From Candidatus Moraniibacteriota bacterium (GTDB lineage: Bacteria; Patescibacteriota; Minisyncoccia; Moranbacterales; DUUL01), in the NCBI GenBank assembly GCA_027008775.1, contig JALVDV010000010.1:96529-160528 (forward strand): a stretch of DNA of 64,000 nucleotides, read 5' to 3'. A model generated the notes under the pieces. It saw only the letters and a program-made list of their open reading frames with translations. It was not told the origin of the DNA and ran no database searches. Positions 4,206 to 64,000 of the stretch are shown here, piece after piece (the first letter of the stretch is position 1; each line of letters begins with the position of its first letter). The translations under genes and the position numbers were made by a program.

Positions 4206-4547
4206 ATGCCGAGAATTGAAATTAAAGAAGGCAGAATTGTCGGGAAGATGAAGAGAGATGGCAGGAATTGTTTGGAGGTGGTTCTAATAGATCTGGTTGA
4301 TGAGCCAAAAGTGCTGGGGTCAGCCATGATTACAGGAAGGGATTGCCGGAGCTGTACCATTGAAATACACCCGATCGGAGGGGCTATCGTTGTCACCCTC
4401 AAAAAGGGTGTGAATACCAGGACCTATGTATTGACATACGAGGTTCTGGTGGAAGAAGGGAGGAGAAAAAAAATTCTGGAGCTCATGCTCCAAAAAACAT
4501 ATTTCAGCAGAGTCTGGGGACGAAAGCTCCCCAAACGTGAAAAATAG
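4206..4547 (+). CDS. Hypothetical small protein (paralog 1)
   Basis: A strong SD (AAAGGAGG) lies 8 nt upstream. The protein is homologous to the ORF at 4830-5135 and is followed by its own terminator at about 4558-4600. Confidence 0.55.
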   Translation: MPRIEIKEGRIVGKMKRDGRNCLEVVLIDLVDEPKVLGSAMITGRDCRSCTIEIHPIGGAIVVTLKKGVNTRTYVLTYEVLVEEGRRKKILELMLQKTYFSRVWGRKLPKREK

Positions 4548-4829
4548 AATCTAAAGAAACCGGAAGGACAATTGTCCGACCGGTTTTTCTTTTTATTTTT
4601 TAAGCTTTTATTCTGTTTTTCACCGACTTTTTATTGAACAATCCGCAGTACTAAAAACCTCCTTTTTGAACCACCCTTCTTAGTTTTTTACCACTAATTG
4701 AAAGTGTATAGCAATCTTTCCCGTCTCAACTAACTTGCTTTTTTTTCTTGTTTGTGTCATATTTGTCTGTCATTCAGTTCTTTTAAATTTGAGTACTTTG
4801 CCATAGAAAATATCAAAGGAGGAAAAATT

Positions 4830-7046: not shown

Positions 7047-7120
7047 GGGGGCGTAGCTCAGCTGGTTAGAGCGTCTGCCTGTCACGCAGAAGGTCGAGGG
7101 TTCAAGTCCCTTCGTCCCCG
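7047..7120 (+). tRNA. tRNA-Asp(GTC)
   Basis: A cloverleaf was folded by eye with anticodon loop cTGTCAc. No CCA is encoded. Confidence 0.8.
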
Positions 7121-7128
7121 CTTTTTTC

Positions 7129-7202
7129 GGGCGTTTAGCTCAGGTGGTTAGAGCGCGTCGCTGATAACGACGAGGTCCCAGGTTCAAGTCCTGGATCGCC
7201 CA
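7129..7202 (+). tRNA. tRNA-Ile(GAT)
   Basis: The anticodon stem is cgtcg/cgacg and the loop is cTGATAa. Confidence 0.75.
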
Positions 7203-7238
7203 CATTTTGCCAGCGCATTGTTTGTAAATAATTTTTCG

Positions 7239-7311
7239 GGGCCGGTAGCTCACCTGGTAGAGCACCTCGTTTGCACCGAGGAGGTAGCGGGTTCAAGTCC
7301 TGTCCGGTCCA
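7239..7311 (+). tRNA. tRNA-Ala(TGC)
   Basis: The anticodon loop is tTTGCAc and the acceptor stem has the G3:U70 pair. Confidence 0.8.
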
Positions 7312-7395
7312 CAATGAGCCAACTATTGCTTTTTTGTCAAAAGTATGCTAGGTTTCTCTGGTACGGGTTGGCACAGTAATTGATAAGTAAAATAT

Positions 7396-9092: not shown

Positions 9093-9233
9093 TATGTTGT
9101 TGGGAAGGAGTGGTACTCTGAGCAAAGTCGCCGATGTGTTACTAAAAAATATTCCGGGATTGAGACTGGCAAGAAAGAAATAGTCCTCTTGGTAATTGAC
9201 TTTCTTGTCAAAAATGATACCATTTTGAGCAAT

Positions 9234-9307
9234 GTCCCGATAGCTCAGCTGGATAGAGCAACGGCCTTCTAAGCCGTAGGTCGCAGGTTCGAATCCTGCT
9301 CGGGACA
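9234..9307 (+). tRNA. tRNA-Arg(TCT)
   Basis: The anticodon loop is cTTCTAa and the acceptor stem gtcccga/tcgggac pairs. Confidence 0.8.
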
Positions 9308-9389
9308 CCCTAGAAAGTTGTAGATTGTGGGAAAAATGTGGTAAAATGATGGTGCCAGGAATATTGTTGAAAATGTAAATGCGCAAAGA

Positions 9390-9473
9390 GCCTCGGTGGC
9401 GGAATTGGTAGACGCGTTGGACTCAAAATCCAATGATAGCAATATCGTGAGAGTTCAAATCTCTCCCGAGGCA
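9390..9473 (+). tRNA. tRNA-Leu(CAA)
   Basis: There is a long variable arm, an anticodon loop cTCAAAa, and a gcctcgg/ccgaggc acceptor stem. Confidence 0.8.
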
Positions 9474-9534
9474 CACTAATAAATTTTATTTATTAAAAGG
9501 TCGAAAACATAATAAGTATTAAACACAAAAAAAA

Positions 9535-42583: not shown

Positions 42584-42745
42584 AAATTTTCTTTAGTTTT
42601 TAAGTCTTTAAAAACCTGTTTTAATTTAGCACCAAAGAAATAGCTTGTCTAGCAAAATCGCCGGAAGATCAACTTTCGGAGGCGGTTGAAAAAGAAAACA
42701 GCCATTGCCCGGTTAGAGACAATGGCTGCGGAGAGGCCAGGAGAA

Positions 42746-43345
42746 TTATTTAATCTTTCTTCTCCCGACCAGGCCCAGGCCGGCGAGGCCTGAGCCGAAA
42801 AGGAGGATGGTCGCCGGCTCGGGCACCGGGGCTGGCGGGTTATCCACGGAAATCTCCGTTAGCTGGAGATTCCCGCACAAACCTCCGATGGCGACGACCA
42901 TGTCGTCGCGATCCCAGTCACTCCACCTGGAGGGCAGGTCCTCCAGGTGGATACTCCAGATTCCCGGAGCCGGCTGGTTCCAGAAAACGTGCTGGATTCC
43001 CTGGTCTTCGGGGGAATTCAACCGGGGATCGCTGTACCAGTCGTACAGCTCCCCAGAGGGGCTGTATGTTTGGAAATGGATTCCGAAAGACTGGAATCCA
43101 TCCCAATCATTGGCGGAGAAGGTCTGCCAGCTCCCGGGCTCGTCGCCCGCCTGGAGGACGGGCAACTGGTTTTGGGGATCGTCGGTTTTGTAGAAAAACA
43201 GTGACGATTCCCAGGATGCTTCTTCCTGGACGTCAACGACAAAAAGGCTGCCGTCCAGTTTGAAGATTGGGATTACCTGCGTGGCATTGGCCACACAGGT
43301 GAAAAAGAATAGAAAAAATAAAAATAAAAGTGGGATTTTTTTCAT
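42746..43345 (-). CDS. Secreted protein with a C-terminal PEP-CTERM sorting signal, strongly GC-shifted
   Basis: The signal peptide MKKIPLLFLFFLFFFTCVANA is AT-rich. The C-terminus reads VPEPATILLFGSGLAGLGLVGRRKIK, which is PEP, then a TM segment, then an RRK basic tail. Body codons end mostly in G or C. Confidence 0.75.
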   Translation of the reverse strand: MKKIPLLFLFFLFFFTCVANATQVIPIFKLDGSLFVVDVQEEASWESSLFFYKTDDPQNQLPVLQAGDEPGSWQTFSANDWDGFQSFGIHFQTYSPSGELYDWYSDPRLNSPEDQGIQHVFWNQPAPGIWSIHLEDLPSRWSDWDRDDMVVAIGGLCGNLQLTEISVDNPPAPVPEPATILLFGSGLAGLGLVGRRKIK

Positions 43346-43495
43346 TTTTTACCTCCCATTTCTGTGTCTCCCTGCCCCCAGGGAGACAATAAAAAGAACT
43401 AGCGACAATGGGGCTATTGCCACTTTTACTTTAAAAAATCTATCCCACCTCCTTTCATTCATTTTATTTAACGGACTTAATTAGTCCGACTTGGC

Positions 43496-43525
43496 ATTGT
43501 AAAACAGAAGTGGGTGACTGTCAAG
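43496..43525 (-). promoter_or_regulatory. Exact consensus promoter TTGACA-N17-TACAAT for the PEP-CTERM gene
   Basis: The exact hexamers with a 17-nt spacer read on the minus strand. They lie directly after a terminator hairpin at 43528..43557. Confidence 0.6.
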
Positions 43526-43527
43526 CA

Positions 43528-43557
43528 AACGCCGGGGGTTTGACTCCCGGCGTTTTA
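43528..43557. terminator. Terminator hairpin after the S74-domain gene
   Basis: The stem GCCGGG/CCCGGC is flanked by A/T runs. Confidence 0.55.
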
Positions 43558-43593
43558 GACATTGTAAAGTTGTAAGCAAGATGACTTTTCCCC

Positions 43594-47632: not shown

Positions 47633-48400
47633 TTACTGTTTACTTCTTTGGATGACTTCTTTGGCCAGTTGACGATAAGCTCGCGCCCCACTGTTGAAAG
47701 TGTCAAAATTGAGAATTGATTTGCCGAAACTGGGTGCTTCCGCCAAACGAACAGTACGAGGAATAACCGCCGAAAAAACTTTGTCGGGAAAATGTCGTCT
47801 AACTTCCTTAACCACCTGCTTGGCCAGCTTGTTCCGTTTGTCGTACATCGTCATCAATATTCCACCCAGGCGCAAAGAGGGTTGCAGATTTTGTTGAACC
47901 AAATCTATAGTGTTCAAAAGTTGACCCAAGCCTTCCAAAGCAAAGTATTCGGTTTGAACGGGAATAATCACTTCGTCGGCGGCCACCAGACCGTTGATGG
48001 TTAACAGACCCAAGCTGGGCGGAGAATCTATAATGATGAAGTCATAGAGATGTTTGACTGTTTCCAAAACTTTTTGTAGGCGATATTCCCTGTTTTCCAG
48101 TTCGGCCAATTCCACGGTGGCGCCGGCCAAATCCTGGTTGGCGGGCAAGATATGCTGATTTTCCGTTTCCGTTTGCAGGATCAAATCCAAGGGGTGAGCG
48201 TTCCCCAAAAGCGCTTCGTAAAGTCCGGCAGACAGATTGGGTACATCAACACCTAATCCACTGGAAGCGTTGGCTTGAGGATCAAGGTCAACTAAGAGCA
48301 CTTTTTGGCCTTCATCGGCCAAGTAGCTGGCCAAGTTGATGGCCGTGGTGGTTTTGCCCACTCCTCCTTTTTGATTGATTAGGGAAATGGTTTTGCCCAT
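47633..48400 (-). CDS. parA: Chromosome partitioning ATPase ParA/Soj
   Basis: The deviant Walker A motif KGGVGKTT is present. Confidence 0.92.
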
Positions 48401-48555
48401 AAAAATGACGACACTAAAAAAATTTAGAAAATTTTGTTCCGGGTTTCATTCTGCTTGTCACATTATACTAAAAAACAAAACACCGGGCAAACGAATCGGT
48501 TTTAGATATGAAAAAAGCGGAAGCTTCGGCTTCCGCTGAGAAACCATTTTTCCCC

Positions 48556-49032
48556 TCACCTCCTTGGTGGAGGTGGAGGTGGAGATGGAGATGGAGGGTG
48601 TCGCCTCATCGGTTGCCCCTGGTGATAATAAGGGGCGGAGCGCTGAGACGCCGATGCCGGCGGTGGAGGGGGCACCGCCTGCACCTGTGATGGACGAGGT
48701 GTTGGCGTTGGAGGAGGGGGTGAGATATACCTCGCCCGTTGCCCCTGCTGATAATAAGAGGCGGACCGGCGAGGTGTTGGCGCCGGAGGGGGCGCCGGGC
48801 GGGGGAAGCGCTCTTGGAGACAGACACGTTGTCCCCCTAGGTACACGCAAACCCGGCCGAAACGCCGGGTTGCGTACGCCCCGTGATTTTTCCCCCACAG
48901 CTGAAGGCTGTGGGAAGAAAATTTGAATCCCTTCCCCCGGAACTCCCAAAAAATACTTGGGAGTTCCCACTGGGCCAGAACCGGCCCAGTGGAAAAAATG
49001 AAAAAAATAAAAAATAAAAAAATTTTTTTCAT
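48556..49032 (-). CDS. Secreted proline-rich repeat protein, GC-shifted
   Basis: A strong SD (GAAGGAGGT) precedes the ATG. The signal peptide MKKIFLFFIFFIFSTGPVLAQ is AT-rich. The body is a Pro-rich tandem repeat of the form RSAxYYxQGQ…PPPP. Confidence 0.6.
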   Translation of the reverse strand: MKKIFLFFIFFIFSTGPVLAQWELPSIFWEFRGKGFKFSSHSLQLWGKNHGAYATRRFGRVCVYLGGQRVCLQERFPRPAPPPAPTPRRSASYYQQGQRARYISPPPPTPTPRPSQVQAVPPPPPASASQRSAPYYHQGQPMRRHPPSPSPPPPPPRR

Positions 49033-49101
49033 ACTACCTCCTTCGCCCCGATTACCGGGGCTCTAAATTTTTTTAATTTTATAAGGTACTCATCTGCCTT
49101 G

Positions 49102-49130
49102 ATTGTACAACATTTTTGGAAAAATGTCAA
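49102..49130 (-). promoter_or_regulatory. Exact consensus promoter TTGACA-N17-TACAAT for the Pro-rich protein gene
   Basis: Read on the minus strand, the 5'UTR then contains a GCCCCGG-taat-CGGGGC hairpin immediately before the SD. Confidence 0.6.
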
Positions 49131-49278
49131 TGGTTTAAAGAACTCGTCAGGCGCGATAAGGTGGCTTACGTTGGCTGAGCAACCCTCCCCGACCGGGGTT
49201 TTTGCTCGGCTTTTTCAGCTAGAAAAATACGTTCTAAGACTGGAAAATTCCAGCGCATTAGAAATGAAGTTGATAAAA

Positions 49279-49312
49279 ACAGCCCCGCTCGCGCGAGCGG
49301 GGCTGTTTTGCT
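49279..49312 (-). terminator. Terminator after rplL
   Basis: The hairpin AAAACAGCCCCGCTCGC-GCGAGCGGGGCTGTTTT is present. Confidence 0.8.
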
Positions 49313-49333
49313 GTGACGACAAATAAATTAGTT

Positions 49334-49783
49334 TTATTTCAATTCCACAGTAGCGCCGGCTTCTTCCAATTGTTTTTTCATCTCTTCCGCTTCTTCTTTG
49401 GCCACTTTTTCTTTGATAACTTTAGGCGCTCCGTCCACAATATCTTTGGCTTCTTTTAAGCCAAGTCCAGTGATGGTCTTGACAGCCTTGATAACATTTA
49501 TTTTAGAATCTCCGGCGGAAACCAATTCCACGTCAAATTCTGATTTTTCTTCTCCGGCGCCACCCTCTTCTCCAGCGCCACCGGCAACGGCTCCGGCAAC
49601 AGCCACGGGAGCGGCGGCGGATACTCCGAATTTTTCCTCCAAGATTTTGACCAGTTCCGCCAAATCCAAAACACTCATTTTTTCAATTTCCTCCACCAGT
49701 TTTTGGAATTTTTCGGGAACCTCAACTTCTTTTTTCTCTTCCTTAGTTTCTGCGGAAGTCTCTTTTTTCTTGTCTTCAGACAT
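49334..49783 (-). CDS. rplL: 50S ribosomal protein L7/L12
   Basis: An Ala/Gly-rich hinge and the L12 C-terminal domain are present. Confidence 0.92.
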
Positions 49784-60387: not shown

Positions 60388-60825
60388 TTATACTTCTTCG
60401 CTTTGAATTGTTTTTAATTTTTTCCAATTAATTTCTTCCACATTTTTGTTTTTGTCAACAAAAAAGATATACAAGCACAATCTTCTTAAAACATTAAATG
60501 GAGTTTTCTTGATAACCATATCGCGAAAATATGTAGAAAATGCCAGCCCGTATTTATAGCCATGATAACAATCACGATATCTTTCATTTCTGTTAGAATA
60601 CATTCGCGTGATAATTTGCCCCATCGCTGAATTAAAACTGCTACTCCTACTGCCAGAAGGACTTTGTACTTTACTAGACGGATCACCTTTTACTTCAATA
60701 AGCCAATATCTTGGATATTTATCATTTTTAACTTTTATATCCACGCCCTGCTCCCACAAATTCGCCGCTTTTAATGATGTGCCCCATCCTTTTTCTTTTA
60801 AATATTCACACCGCTTCTTGCACAA
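60388..60825 (-). CDS. Small PD-(D/E)xK nuclease-fold protein (putative)
   Basis: VDIKVKND…WLIEVKG fits a D…E-x-K catalytic motif. Confidence 0.35.
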   Translation of the reverse strand: MCKKRCEYLKEKGWGTSLKAANLWEQGVDIKVKNDKYPRYWLIEVKGDPSSKVQSPSGSRSSSFNSAMGQIITRMYSNRNERYRDCYHGYKYGLAFSTYFRDMVIKKTPFNVLRRLCLYIFFVDKNKNVEEINWKKLKTIQSEEV

Positions 60826-60886
60826 AATCTTCCGTTAAAATTGTTCGTTTTTGGTTTGATTGTGATAGCGTAATAATATTTTATTA

Positions 60887-61861
60887 CTATTTTTCTGAAC
60901 TAATTTTTATATATTTTCCAAATTTATCAATTTTTACATCACGATTTTTTTTATAATTACATTTTTTAAAATATCTTATCATCCTTTTTAAATAATTCAC
61001 ATCTTTGGCAACGAAACAATTATAACTATTTTCTACTATAAGTTGATTGATACTTTTAATCGCGTTTTTACCTTCTTTTTTATAAATTTCTATAGGTGAT
61101 TTTATTTTTGGTATTATTACAAGATGCAAATCGGGTCTCAAAGGAAAATGTACAACACCATCCAAAGATGAAAGTCCTACACTTCTATTGTTTTTAGAAT
61201 AAACAAAACAAGGATTATCGGATGTTATCATCGACATTTTCTTGGGAGGCACTATAAAAATCCATTGATTTTCAAATAACTTTTTTGCTATTTCATTAAG
61301 TTTAAATAACCACTTTGAATGCCCCGTGTTTGTTAATTTAATAACATAGCCATCATTTTGAATTGCCTCAAATAATTGTTTTTTTGCTTCTATTTTAGGT
61401 AAAGCATTTATCTTTTTTATCGCTTTTTTCTCGTCTTCATTTATCGCCTGTTTTTCATCTGGTATAATAATTTTATCTACTGACGAAAACTTATCTCTAA
61501 GTCCTATCTTTATAATGGTATCTATAACACTATTTATTTCACTTCTGTGCTTTGGAGTTCTTATGTATTGAAGAGCAACATAAAAAGCAATTGCACTTCG
61601 CTCGTATCCATTTAATTGCTTGCCATAATTAATATCTTTAATAGTTTTAATACCTTTTGCATCAATATATGCAGTAAATTTTTCAGGTAAATATTTATCA
61701 TTAACATCATCCAATATATTAAAATCTTTTATAGAAAAACCTGGCCAACCTGCACCCCTTCTTTTAATTTTGTCTTCCTCTGTGCTATAAATATTTAATT
61801 GATTATCATCACAATACCATTGTTTTAAATATTCCTTTTGTACAATATGATGTTTCGGCAT
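60887..61861 (-). CDS. DUF4238-family protein
   Basis: The N-terminal HHIVQKEYLKQW matches the DUF4238 H(Y/H)(V/I)PQxYL(K/R)xF motif. The start was taken at the internal ATG (MPKHH). Confidence 0.55.
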   Translation of the reverse strand: MPKHHIVQKEYLKQWYCDDNQLNIYSTEEDKIKRRGAGWPGFSIKDFNILDDVNDKYLPEKFTAYIDAKGIKTIKDINYGKQLNGYERSAIAFYVALQYIRTPKHRSEINSVIDTIIKIGLRDKFSSVDKIIIPDEKQAINEDEKKAIKKINALPKIEAKKQLFEAIQNDGYVIKLTNTGHSKWLFKLNEIAKKLFENQWIFIVPPKKMSMITSDNPCFVYSKNNRSVGLSSLDGVVHFPLRPDLHLVIIPKIKSPIEIYKKEGKNAIKSINQLIVENSYNCFVAKDVNYLKRMIRYFKKCNYKKNRDVKIDKFGKYIKISSEK

Positions 61862-61966
61862 AATATTTTCATCATCAAACAAACAACCCCTGCATCAAAC
61901 CTTTTTCCCAGGTTTGGACTTTGGTTATTTGATCTTGTTTTAATTGTATCATTTTATCAATAGAAT

Positions 61967-62956
61967 TCAGGAGGTCTGCGATTTTTTGTTGTTAGAGTGT
62001 TGAAATTTTATATCAATTTCTGCTGCCATATCTCTCAATTCTGAAAAAGAATTATCCAACGATTCTACATAAACATCAAGATTAAATGGATCAACATCTT
62101 TATCCATTGACACCATCTTTTCCATTCTTTTCAATAATTCGTCTATCTTTTTTATTTCTTCAACAATTCCTGGAATAGCTATTCCATGCTTATTTAATGT
62201 TTTGATGTTATACCTGTCCTTAACGCCTTTTTTAAAATCCTCATATATTTTACACAACGTTTCAAAAGAAGTTTTAGAGATATGACGATTGTCCTCAAAT
62301 GACCATAATTTTTGTATTAAATAGCCAGATTGTGCAAGCTTTTCTACTAAACTGTCATATTTAAACTTTTCTTTGTGTTTATTTTCAATTTCATTTAGCT
62401 TTTTTATGATTCTATCCATTTCTATACTTAATACACTAGATTGTTTATTTATTATTTCTATAATATTTATCTTTTTATTAACAAAATTATTATGCGACCA
62501 TACTTGATATTCTAAAATATTTGTATTTTCAGCTGTACTTAATGATGTATATGTAATATTTCCATCTTTATAAGAAATGTCTTTACTTCTTTTTTTCTTT
62601 GTTTCCGATGGATGTCCAATTGTTTCATTTCTTATATTTCGTATTTTTTTAAGTTCCGGAAAACTTTCAAATTTTGGCACCTTGATATCAATAGCCCTTT
62701 CCAAATGCACTATTGAATCCTGTTGTACAATTAGTGCTTGTAATATTCCATATATAGATAATTTTGTATGATATTTTTGCTCTATATATTCTTCTATTGC
62801 TGATTGAGCATCTTGAATATTATCAAAAGCAGACCATAATTTGCTCCAATTACCTTTATCTTTCTTATTCCAAGCTCTTTGCTTACAACAAAAAGATGTG
62901 TAAATAATCTTTTTTAATTTATCAATTTTTGTTCTTAAATTATAGTTATCATTCAT
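61967..62956 (-). CDS. Hypothetical protein with a possible HEPN-like Rx5H motif
   Basis: IRNIRNETIGHPSE contains R-x5-H. There are no other recognisable domains. Confidence 0.35.
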   Translation of the reverse strand: MNDNYNLRTKIDKLKKIIYTSFCCKQRAWNKKDKGNWSKLWSAFDNIQDAQSAIEEYIEQKYHTKLSIYGILQALIVQQDSIVHLERAIDIKVPKFESFPELKKIRNIRNETIGHPSETKKKRSKDISYKDGNITYTSLSTAENTNILEYQVWSHNNFVNKKINIIEIINKQSSVLSIEMDRIIKKLNEIENKHKEKFKYDSLVEKLAQSGYLIQKLWSFEDNRHISKTSFETLCKIYEDFKKGVKDRYNIKTLNKHGIAIPGIVEEIKKIDELLKRMEKMVSMDKDVDPFNLDVYVESLDNSFSELRDMAAEIDIKFQHSNNKKSQTS

Positions 62957-63035
62957 AGTATTTTTTTACACAAACAACCCCTGCATCAGTCCTCTTTTCC
63001 ACTCCTGCATTTTTTGGATTTGGGCGTCAACTGAC

Positions 63036-63506
63036 TCAATGCTTACTTTTCACCCCTTCAAACTCTACACCCACAAAACCCTCCCAGCCCAAAACTATTT
63101 CTTCATTCTTGTACTGTTGGGCGATTTTCTTTATGGCGTCATTTTTGCTTTTTGCCTTGACATCAACAACTCTCTGCAATGTTTCCGTGATTTCTATTTT
63201 GTATTTCTTGGTAGATTTCAAAACAACATCGTCCGCATCCTTATTCTTAATTTTTTCCAAAAATCCTTTAGCCATAAGTTGCAATGTTTCTTCGTCTAAG
63301 TTTTGTAAATTTTCCCATAATTCAAATGTTTGATAAGTGTCATCATTTACAATGTTTCGCCATTCTTTCGGTTCAATTTCCATAAAATCATTATCTTCTG
63401 AAAATTCTTTACACATTATTGAAAACGGAAAATAAAAATCTTTATGCTCATCTAAATATCTTAGAATTTTAATAGCCAAATTCCTATTGATTTTCATAGC
63501 ACACAA
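63036..63506 (-). CDS. Hypothetical protein
   Basis: An ORF is present but no motif was recognised. Confidence 0.35.
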   Translation of the reverse strand: MCAMKINRNLAIKILRYLDEHKDFYFPFSIMCKEFSEDNDFMEIEPKEWRNIVNDDTYQTFELWENLQNLDEETLQLMAKGFLEKIKNKDADDVVLKSTKKYKIEITETLQRVVDVKAKSKNDAIKKIAQQYKNEEIVLGWEGFVGVEFEGVKSKH

Positions 63507-63550
63507 AGTTAAATTTTATGCTTTCATTATTGATCACTATGAAAAACAGA

Positions 63551-64000
63551 TCAAGCCAATTTGTATTTACCTCCGCCCAGAAATTCCAAATAATTTTTAT
63601 CTCGCAATAATTGCAACTGTTGTCTGATTTTATCCTTAATATGTTTGTTGTTTGGATATTTTTTGCTTAAAGCATTTTCAAAATTATACAATTCTCGCAA
63701 AGTAAATTCCGATTTTCCCAAACTATCAATACACTTCATTATGTCCAAAATCCAACCGCGCAAATTTGACTTTTTTTCTTCCCGTAGAAACAAAGTTTTC
63801 CGCCAATTTTTCAAAACCGTTTCTTTCGGTTTTTCTCGGCGGTTTTTGACATAAAAAATTTTTCCACTTTCCGGAATACCCGACAGATCAATACTGCACA
63901 TTATATAGTTTGGTCTACCGGGAATACCGTTTTTTCTAGGAATAATAATCTCCGGCACAAAAAAATGTTTCGGAATAACAATAAAATTGGTAACTTCATA
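63551..64000 (-). CDS. DpnI-like (methyl-directed, GmATC-type) restriction endonuclease, 5'-partial with the N-terminus beyond the window end
   Basis: The reading frame stays open to the window edge. The C-terminal winged helix …CSIDLSGIPESGKIF…RGWILDIMKCID…EFTL…KIRQQLQLLRDKNYLEFLGGGKYK matches the DpnI/Dam-replacing family as I remember it. Confidence 0.55.
   Translation of the reverse strand, partial: YEVTNFIVIPKHFFVPEIIIPRKNGIPGRPNYIMCSIDLSGIPESGKIFYVKNRREKPKETVLKNWRKTLFLREEKKSNLRGWILDIMKCIDSLGKSEFTLRELYNFENALSKKYPNNKHIKDKIRQQLQLLRDKNYLEFLGGGKYKLA

Follow-up and report, generated by a model that had tools for sequence, protein, structure and literature searches.

The gap of 933 nucleotides (nt) which separates parA (47633-48400, minus strand) from rplL (49334-49783, minus strand) in contig JALVDV010000010.1 of a Candidatus Moraniibacteriota bacterium holds a GC-rich island, and the locus raises the question of what this island encodes and why it folds so strongly. 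In the current work, a stretch of 64,000 nt encompassing the gap (named the window, with position 1 being its first letter and a mean GC content of ~0.40) was analyzed together with related loci. An earlier note, made from the letters of the window alone, had interpreted the island as a GC-rich gene, wedged between parA and rplL, for a secreted, proline-rich protein with repeats, and each part of this description is backed by the comparative data presented here. Judged by sequence comparison, the open reading frame (ORF) running from 49032 to 48556 on the minus strand is a genuine protein-coding gene, which is translated and under purifying selection, and its coding sequence forms a near-continuous chain of hairpins. 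The reading favoured overall, which we consider probable, is that of an orphan gene for a secreted protein whose product would bind envelope material and whose mRNA would be protected by its hairpins.

The ORF comprises 158 codons from its ATG and ends with the stop codon TGA at 48556-48558.

48556-49032, minus strand: coding sequence of the 158 amino acid (aa) precursor, with a ratio of nonsynonymous to synonymous polymorphism (pN/pS) of 0.16-0.40 in this frame only, and a frame kept through insertions and deletions (indels).

For comparison, eight loci (L001-L008) were retrieved from contigs encoding an identical ParA, to which L009 (protein P0001) was added by way of the protein search, and L090 and L091, which also span the rplL-parA interval, by way of a PEP-CTERM protein encoded nearby. 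The independent assemblies L001-L003 carry identical or near-identical copies of the gap sequence, which is therefore real and not an assembly artefact. Diverged versions of the gap are present in L004, L006 and L007, and L008 provides a short fragment that has diverged further. All variants have the same frame open (158, 158, 156, 156, 155 and 110 aa) with the same stop context, and it survives indels of -6, -10, +19, -3 and -15 nt as well as the loss of a whole repeat. In the first 333 nt, which align without gaps and cover codons 1-111 with the signal peptide, the variable columns at codon positions 1, 2 and 3 number 13, 11 and 34, respectively, and pN/pS amounts to 0.16-0.28 in the ORF frame as opposed to 0.7-3.6 in the other frames, the exception being an antisense frame which shares the wobble positions and holds three to five stops. 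The corresponding value for L090 is 0.40 (210 nt of the mature part). Peptide motifs are kept despite differences at the DNA level (RRSTPRYRGQLMGR and SAPRYQGQPMRY in L009, SVPRYQGQAAKYNIPPSSKK in L008), and even the diverged L008 fragment has retained [ST]-x-P-[YR]-Y-x-[GR]-Q as well as a dibasic C-terminus.

Other ORFs overlap this gene at 48458-48970 (minus strand, 170 aa), 48606-48827 (minus strand, 73 aa) and 48564-48926 (plus strand, 120 aa). The two minus-strand calls had been explained by every frame being open on account of composition; the calls do exist, but the explanation was overstated, since the stops per frame in 48556-48990 number 3, 9 and 1 on the plus strand and 1, 2 and 0 on the minus strand. 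All three overlapping ORFs were rejected as coding sequences because of frames in which pN/pS reaches 0.7 or more or in which the N-terminal half is interrupted by stops; in the plus-strand ORF, third positions fall on second positions of the sense frame, and its pN/pS is unsupportive. This plus-strand ORF was nevertheless called by some pipelines in L004 and L005, and the gene callers used for other assemblies skipped the orphan ORF. The exact 158-aa product has no database record, and the ORF must therefore have been skipped in the identical assemblies as well. The gene is thus mis-annotated in public assemblies, being either passed over or called on the wrong strand.

The precursor and the repeats in its tail are composed as follows.

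48970-49032, minus strand: AT-rich signal peptide MKKIFLFFIFFIFSTGPVLAQ, with a signal peptidase I cleavage predicted after VLA by the -3/-1 rule.
48805-48969, minus strand: N-terminal domain of the mature protein, aa 22-76 (55 aa), conserved and rich in Trp, Phe, Arg and Lys.
48559-48804, minus strand: low-complexity tail of Pro, Arg, Tyr and Gln, aa 77-158, with 30 Pro, 11 Arg and a net charge of +11.
48730-48797, minus strand: repeat copy A (PAPPPAPTPRRSASYYQQGQRAR), 68 nt.
48604-48677, minus strand: repeat copy B (AVPPPPPASASQRSAPYYHQGQPMR), 74 nt, 73% identical to copy A, the starts of the two copies being 120 nt apart.
48566-48597, minus strand: run of the hexanucleotide CCACCT/CCATCT, 5.3 copies, encoding poly-Pro/Ser, reported by Tandem Repeats Finder.

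The precursor starts with MKK, followed by IFLFFIFFIFSTGPVL and by VLA, after which the predicted mature protein begins with QW; the layout of n-, h- and c-regions with small residues at -3 and -1 is that of a signal peptide when judged by rule. In L090, the signal peptide reads MKKIFLFFISIFFIFIGPALAQ and has an A-x-A-type site between ALA and QW. The conservation of this layout and of the (V/A)-L-A motif ahead of Q, again judged by rule, is in agreement with the secretion that had been proposed. The predicted mature protein (137 aa, 15.5 kDa) has an isoelectric point of 11.5, a net charge of +17, 31 Pro (23%) and 17 Arg, and neither a lipobox nor a C-terminal anchor is seen in its sequence. 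Its N-terminal domain contains two invariant cysteines, C62 and C71, arranged as C-x8-C, and its tail is 37% Pro, contains FPRP and TPRP motifs and ends with PPPPPPRR. The body had been described as holding two head-to-tail units of about 96 nt encoding RSA(S/P)YY(Q/H)QGQ; the motif is present, but the units are in reality the 68-nt and 74-nt copies listed above, which are not reported by Tandem Repeats Finder (this program reports only the 6-nt run). The designation as a repeat protein is supported by a copy number which varies among strains, from one (L090 and L091) through two (the window) to three (L009). The hexanucleotide run lacks one unit in L004, L006 and L007, which leaves the reading frame intact.

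The gene is accompanied by its own expression signals, listed here from promoter to terminator.

49102-49130, minus strand: promoter-like TTGACA-17 nt-TACAAT, with 11 of 12 consensus matches, conserved in L004, L006 and L090.
49045-49061, minus strand: stem-loop GCCCCG-GUAAU-CGGGGC in the 5' untranslated region (UTR), directly upstream of the ribosome-binding site, found by folding and helix comparison.
49036-49043, minus strand: Shine-Dalgarno sequence AAGGAGGT, 3 nt ahead of the ATG, invariant in all variants.
48516-48537, minus strand: intrinsic terminator AGCGGAAGC-CGAA-GCUUCCGCU followed by U6.

An in-frame TAA is present seven codons upstream of the ATG. Helices 1 and 2 of the 5' UTR are invariant or tolerate G-U pairs across five variants. 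Furthermore, a UACCUU located upstream is able to base-pair with the Shine-Dalgarno AAGGAGGUA around the small 5' hairpin (49033-49090, minus strand), and since the seven pairs are invariant in all five variants, this arrangement may represent a translational control element. In the window, the loop of the terminator reads CGAA, and in L004, L006, L007 and L008 it reads UUCG, the reverse complement, between identical stems.

What distinguishes the gene is the folding potential of its coding sequence, whose density of hairpins the earlier note had not remarked on. Compared to dinucleotide shuffles, folding of the island yields a z-score of -12.3 for the minus strand and -11.5 for the plus strand. 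In a scan of the 64 kb in 240-nt segments (mean z -0.7, standard deviation 1.6), there are two extended outliers, one at 48361-49440 with successive z-scores of -3.8 to -8.7, and the other in the region of the PEP-CTERM gene (42601-43560, -3.8 to -8.0); the segment containing the transfer-messenger RNA (tmRNA) gene scores -4.1 in the same scan. A further structure outlier at 4441-4680 was set aside as an ordinary terminator. Perfect hairpins of at least 9 bp within coding sequence are found mainly in the orphan and PEP-CTERM genes, the orphan stems being 9-11 bp long. The N-terminal domain is encoded by five consecutive hairpins (approximately 48967-48992, 48939-48967, 48886-48922, 48846-48874 and 48816-48837), and the hexanucleotide run pairs, as helix 22, with a Shine-Dalgarno-like AAGGAGGUGA which contains the stop codon. 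When the first 60 nt are left out, the orphan coding sequence scores -8.5, -8.4, -8.2 and -9.4 in four variants, while the neighbouring parA, rplL and RNase H genes score 0.3, -0.4 and 0.5.

The folding energy of the region encoding the N-terminal domain is -139.0, -135.8 and -146.9 kcal/mol in L004, L006 and L009, respectively, compared to -140.6 kcal/mol in the window. Placing the same base changes at random sites of equal codon position and base (1000 runs) gives -114.9, -108.6 and -123.0 kcal/mol (standard deviation ~7), and at most 1 in 1000 randomizations matches the observed value for each of these loci (p ≤ 0.001). Five pairs are changed on both sides, as opposed to zero to three when the partners are slid along the sequence; around the stop codon of L008, for example, CCUCC/GGAGG has become CUUCU/AGAAG, with PP..RR being replaced by SS..KK in the protein. 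The folding potential of the orphan coding sequence is maintained in most variants.

These are also the data on the strength of which the GC-rich island could be taken for the gene of a structured non-coding RNA, with the ORF as a by-product of composition: z-scores of -12 and -11.5 on the two strands, perfect hairpins of 9-11 bp, five compensatory pairs, a folding energy preserved among variants, and gene callers which skipped the ORF or chose the wrong strand in several assemblies. We nevertheless regard this explanation as scarcely credible. The island has no Rfam match even at E ≤ 1 other than weak chance matches (18.7 bits against a threshold of 50, and 17.4 bits against 35), and ARAGORN returned no match in the orphan-gene region. 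Moreover, the three-base periodicity of 13/11/34, a pN/pS of ~0.2 in one frame, the maintenance of that frame through many indels and the loss of a whole repeat, the strong Shine-Dalgarno sequence with its ATG and canonical signal peptide, and the peptide motifs conserved where nucleotides differ (L008, L009) are all features of a protein-coding gene.

The composition of the gene is linked to its stems. The AT-rich signal peptide followed by a GC-rich body, as noted previously, is borne out by GC contents of 0.29, 0.24 and 0.38 at codon positions 1, 2 and 3 (GC1, GC2 and GC3) in the first 63 nt, compared to an overall GC content of 0.62 in the remaining body and ~0.40 in the genome. In the tail, GC1, GC2 and GC3 are 0.72, 0.77 and 0.52, with host means of 0.49, 0.34 and 0.42 (standard deviation of GC3 0.075), and 22 of 32 proline codons end in A or T, a higher share than in the host. 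The earlier note had named, as the outcome that would count against it, a GC content explained purely by proline codons with host-like third positions; this explanation largely applies to the tail but not to the N-terminal domain, where GC3 is 0.62. In the mature coding sequence as a whole, GC3 is 0.70 at positions which are base-paired in the local fold and 0.35 at unpaired positions, the paired positions of neighbouring genes having a GC3 of 0.51-0.57. Composition thus goes beyond proline alone, and the excess of GC is associated with the stems.

The only other long ORF of the window with such a folding potential lies 5 kb away.

42746-43345, minus strand: gene for a PEP-CTERM protein of 199 aa (PF07589, 29.7 bits; TIGR02595).

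Its promoter, TTGACA-17-TACAAT, is located at 43496-43524 (minus strand), a 10-bp hairpin (43365-43388) directly precedes its Shine-Dalgarno sequence, and its signal peptide is F-rich and AT-rich like that of the orphan protein, with 48 nt at 79% identity. The composition pattern which the earlier note had seen as common to the two genes is confirmed, with an AT-rich head and a GC-rich body (GC3 of 0.41 followed by 0.72); the GC3 of the PEP-CTERM gene, 0.69 overall, is the highest among 47 long ORFs. Hairpins of 12-15 bp follow one another along its coding sequence, at positions conserved among variants, and z-scores of -8.3, -18.0, -8.4 and -14.2 are obtained in variants with 70-100% protein identity. 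A homolog in a different Parcubacteria genome, 37% identical, shows nothing unusual (GC3 of 0.42, z-score of -2.0). The link between the orphan and PEP-CTERM genes therefore runs deeper than composition, and hyper-structure is a lineage-specific trait of both.

Regarding the origin of the gene, ParA relatives place the organism in Candidatus Moraniibacteriota (Parcubacteria/Patescibacteria), and the comparison of related loci allows the boundaries of the inserted segment to be approximated.

48495-49275, minus strand: lineage-specific cassette, approximate extent ~780 nt, between the rplL terminator (49276-49309) and the parA promoter (48462-48490, minus strand).

In the nearest species (L010, ParA 84% identical), the rplL-parA gap is only 132 nt long and consists of the terminator and the parA promoter, in keeping with the term wedged. 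In another related species (L011, ParA 74% identical), the gap holds an unrelated opposite-strand gene of 584 aa (L011:544-2298), the product of which resembles a sigma-54-type AAA+ activator; in view of this unrelated gene, the site seems to be a recurrent insertion point. Searches by tblastn and blastn with the ORF and the gap in 80 Moraniibacteriota/Parcubacteria parA loci found no homolog within 3 kb of parA. Considering this result together with the short gap of L010 and the unrelated gene of L011, the cassette is specific to one species cluster, and the orphan gene is a self-contained, monocistronic and lineage-specific gene inserted between rplL and parA in one Moraniibacteriota species cluster. 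The cassette may have arisen de novo or may have been acquired.

Protein searches are in agreement with this restricted distribution. P0001, the L009 variant, was the sole match both in a word-indexed search of 5.8 billion proteins and in a full HMMER search of 1.84 billion cluster representatives with a profile of residues 22-104. Pfam and NCBIfam yielded no match to the orphan protein at E ≤ 1, and a PDB sequence search gave none at E ≤ 10. When the low-complexity signal peptide was used as a pattern against genome and metagenome collections, none of ~600 candidates was confirmed, and a degenerate, back-translated GQR(V/I)CLQERFP pattern gave no matches in metagenome contigs. Nothing was found in the literature on the orphan protein.

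A recent horizontal acquisition of the cassette from a GC-rich donor, a phage or a mobile element would explain its composition, and is suggested by its absence at the same site in the nearest species, by a GC content of 0.62 compared to 0.40, by an integrase-like ORF which abuts the remnant of the gene in L005, and by a perfect 14-nt inverted repeat flanking the region (48415-48428 and 49062-49075). We consider this explanation quite improbable. No cassette donor was detectable among the 5.8 billion proteins or the 1.84 billion representatives; the third positions of the tail are host-like, with proline codons more A/T-ending than in the host; GC3 outside the stems of the mature coding sequence is 0.35; and the gene has a promoter, a Shine-Dalgarno sequence and a signal peptide in the style of the host, similar to those of the PEP-CTERM gene. 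As for the inverted repeat at the flanks, it is of A/T low complexity and is not retained in L004 or L006; nor do the hairpins recur at other places in the window. A miniature inverted-repeat transposable element (MITE) delimited by this repeat was rejected because of the A/T low complexity of the repeat, its degradation in L004 and L006 and the position of the promoter outside it. A dispersed palindromic element was rejected for the window, only A/T low-complexity matches being present elsewhere in the 64 kb.

By kind, the orphan product is an ordinary orphan secreted low-complexity protein. It shares with other orphan small secreted bacterial proteins a short monocistronic gene, a Sec-type signal peptide, a low-complexity repeat body, the lack of homologs outside the species cluster, and a presence and repeat number which vary among strains. 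The gene stands apart from this group through a coding sequence in which perfect or near-perfect hairpins follow one another almost without interruption (z about -8 to -9) and do so in most variants, a property which, to our knowledge, has not been described for orphan secreted-protein genes. With the neighbouring PEP-CTERM/exosortase substrate, it has in common the promoter type, the 5' hairpin, the signal peptide, the GC-rich body and the hyper-structured coding sequence; unlike PEP-CTERM substrates, the orphan protein lacks the PEP-CTERM motif (no hit at E ≤ 1), the transmembrane helix and the type of basic tail that such substrates carry. Plant extensins, polyproline-II wall proteins and the proline-rich wall-spanning segments of Gram-positive bacteria resemble it in their SPPPP or SPSPPPP runs with Tyr-Tyr motifs and in being secreted, basic products of variable repeat number. 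The orphan protein differs from them in that it shares no homology with them, implies no machinery for hydroxylation or glycosylation, and has no LPXTG or other anchor.

With respect to function, the precursor would be exported by Sec and cut by signal peptidase I. The anchorless product, with its charge of +17 and an extended polyproline-type tail, would most likely bind polyanionic envelope material, either of its own cell or of a host cell, and could serve as an abundant surface-coating, adhesive or envelope-active factor which diversifies by gain and loss of repeats. The hairpin chain, together with the 5' stem-loop, would most likely shield the mRNA from single-strand-specific RNases, leading to a high output from the strong promoter, and the hairpins themselves are probably created and repaired in part by intra-hairpin template switching during replication. 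Contact with other cells is a requirement for bacteria of the candidate phyla radiation (CPR), whose surface proteins are mostly unknown; given this dependence, the orphan protein is a candidate strain-variable surface or host-interaction factor.

Alternatively, the product could be a secreted antimicrobial or host-attacking effector, combining a cationic disulfide loop with a Pro/Arg-rich peptide, instead of a coating or adhesive protein. Pro/Arg-rich peptides such as Bac7, PR-39, oncocin and apidaecin, and the cationic single-disulfide hairpin peptides bactenecin and thanatin, are of similar composition, with a high content of Pro and Arg, PRP-type motifs, a strong positive charge and a short Cys-bounded loop in a cationic aromatic segment. 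The conserved C-x8-C loop of the Trp-, Phe-, Arg- and Lys-rich N-terminal domain and the FPRP and TPRP motifs of the tail (37% Pro, charge +11) fit this picture, as do a gene which is strain-variable and apparently dispensable in one strain and the fact that CPR bacteria live on other cells. It is nonetheless improbable that the protein is such an effector, since it has no similarity to any known peptide family in the protein, Pfam, NCBIfam and PDB searches, and since no immunity, processing or export gene is adjacent. At 137 aa it is much longer than known proline-rich antimicrobial peptides (three to six times), it is bacterial and not of animal origin, it shares no sequence homology with these peptides, and the resemblance is one of composition.

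Several observations weigh against the favoured reading of an envelope-binding protein encoded by a hairpin-protected mRNA. The function of the protein is deduced from its composition only, and AlphaFold2 yields no confident fold (predicted local distance difference test 55, predicted template modelling score 0.20), its low-confidence model consisting of a signal-peptide helix, short strands at 36-73 and a tail in coil. The variants are close relatives and hence non-independent. In L005, an ORF on the opposite strand to the orphan gene (L005:20-601, minus strand of the locus) takes the place of the gene's 5' two-thirds; it encodes 193 aa with weak similarity to integrase cores (rve_3, rve_2) and contains ...TDNGSEF...; this is probably an insertion sequence, with an assembly chimera as the alternative, and because of this replacement either the gene is dispensable in L005 or the contig is chimeric. 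The L090 variant is less structured, with a coding-sequence z-score of -3.5, and its energy test gives p = 0.11 in the forward direction (0.006 in reverse). Third-position variability is not significantly lower in stems (19/57 versus 14/33, p = 0.5), and sense-strand G-U mismatches are not clearly favoured over A-C (17 versus 12). The evidence for selection on the orphan-gene hairpins is therefore mixed.

Template switching within hairpins creates and maintains stems (PMC8794818), and the hairpin chain could accordingly be a mutational by-product of this process in quasi-palindromes, tolerated by the protein. The inversion of the terminator loop between strains (CGAA/TTCG) is a signature of intra-hairpin template switching (PMC8794818), and with the hairpins of that study and with Rickettsia palindromic elements the orphan gene shares perfect stems in translated sequence, loop inversion and paired changes of the arms. 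The same reading is favoured by stems which are perfect, beyond being merely stable, by synonymous variation which is not significantly depleted in stems, by the lack of a strand bias of G-U over A-C, and by the loss of much of the structure in L090 while the protein was kept. A purely mutational process, however, should not single out two genes, and the trait occurs in only 2 of ~47 long ORFs of the 64 kb, both of them strongly promoted genes for secreted proteins and of the same design; in the PEP-CTERM gene it persists at 70-83% protein identity (z -8 to -18), the distant homolog having a z-score of -2.0. We therefore hold a mutational origin alone to be somewhat unlikely. The orphan hairpins all differ and have no dispersed copies within the 64-kb window, such copies being the defining feature of palindromic mobile elements.

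At the other end of the range stands the idea that at least these two genes belong to a class of strongly promoted secreted-protein genes of this lineage, enriched for GC in their stems and with z-scores of -8 to -18, in which the RNA structure, maintained while the proteins diverge, would be functional and would be created and repaired by template switching. Such a structure might confer, for example, extreme longevity of the mRNA or its translation-independent targeting to the membrane. The existence of this class seems doubtful at present; if true, it would represent a dual code on whole genes as opposed to short regulatory elements.

The hyper-structured coding sequence is the feature that lifts an otherwise ordinary orphan secreted gene above routine. 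Two secreted-protein genes are among the most structured stretches in the 64 kb, above the tmRNA gene as measured by z-score, yet both are coding and under purifying selection. If the structure is selected, the orphan gene offers a clean natural case of the overlap of a protein code and an RNA structure over a whole gene; if it is mutational, it offers a natural example of template switching that builds hairpins inside genes. In either case, the locus serves as a warning that a GC-rich island which folds strongly within an AT-rich genome need not be an RNA gene.

A number of minor observations were made in the window and at the related loci. At the Rfam gathering score, the whole window contains only a tmRNA gene and five tRNAs. 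The tmRNA gene is located at 28-430 (Rfam 160 bits) and specifies the tag peptide ANLKTRVKTALANLFAKPSFAAAVA, and tRNA genes lie at 7047-7312 and 9233-9474. L090 carries an extra insert of ~170 nt (~1700-1890) between the parA promoter and the parA start, which is absent from the window and contains a long inverted repeat, TAGTCAAGCTTTCCGGATGTTATTTTC ... GAAAATAACATCCGGAAAGCTTGATAGAC, with a MITE-like appearance. Between parB and the RNase H gene, L002 (4236-4938) and L005 (2848-3550) encode a nucleotidyltransferase pair (Polbeta and NTase_sub_bind), a toxin-antitoxin-like module which the window lacks. Finally, the GC content falls to 0.25-0.34 in the compositionally distinct part of the window spanning 60400-64000, with a strongly negative GC skew at the window end.

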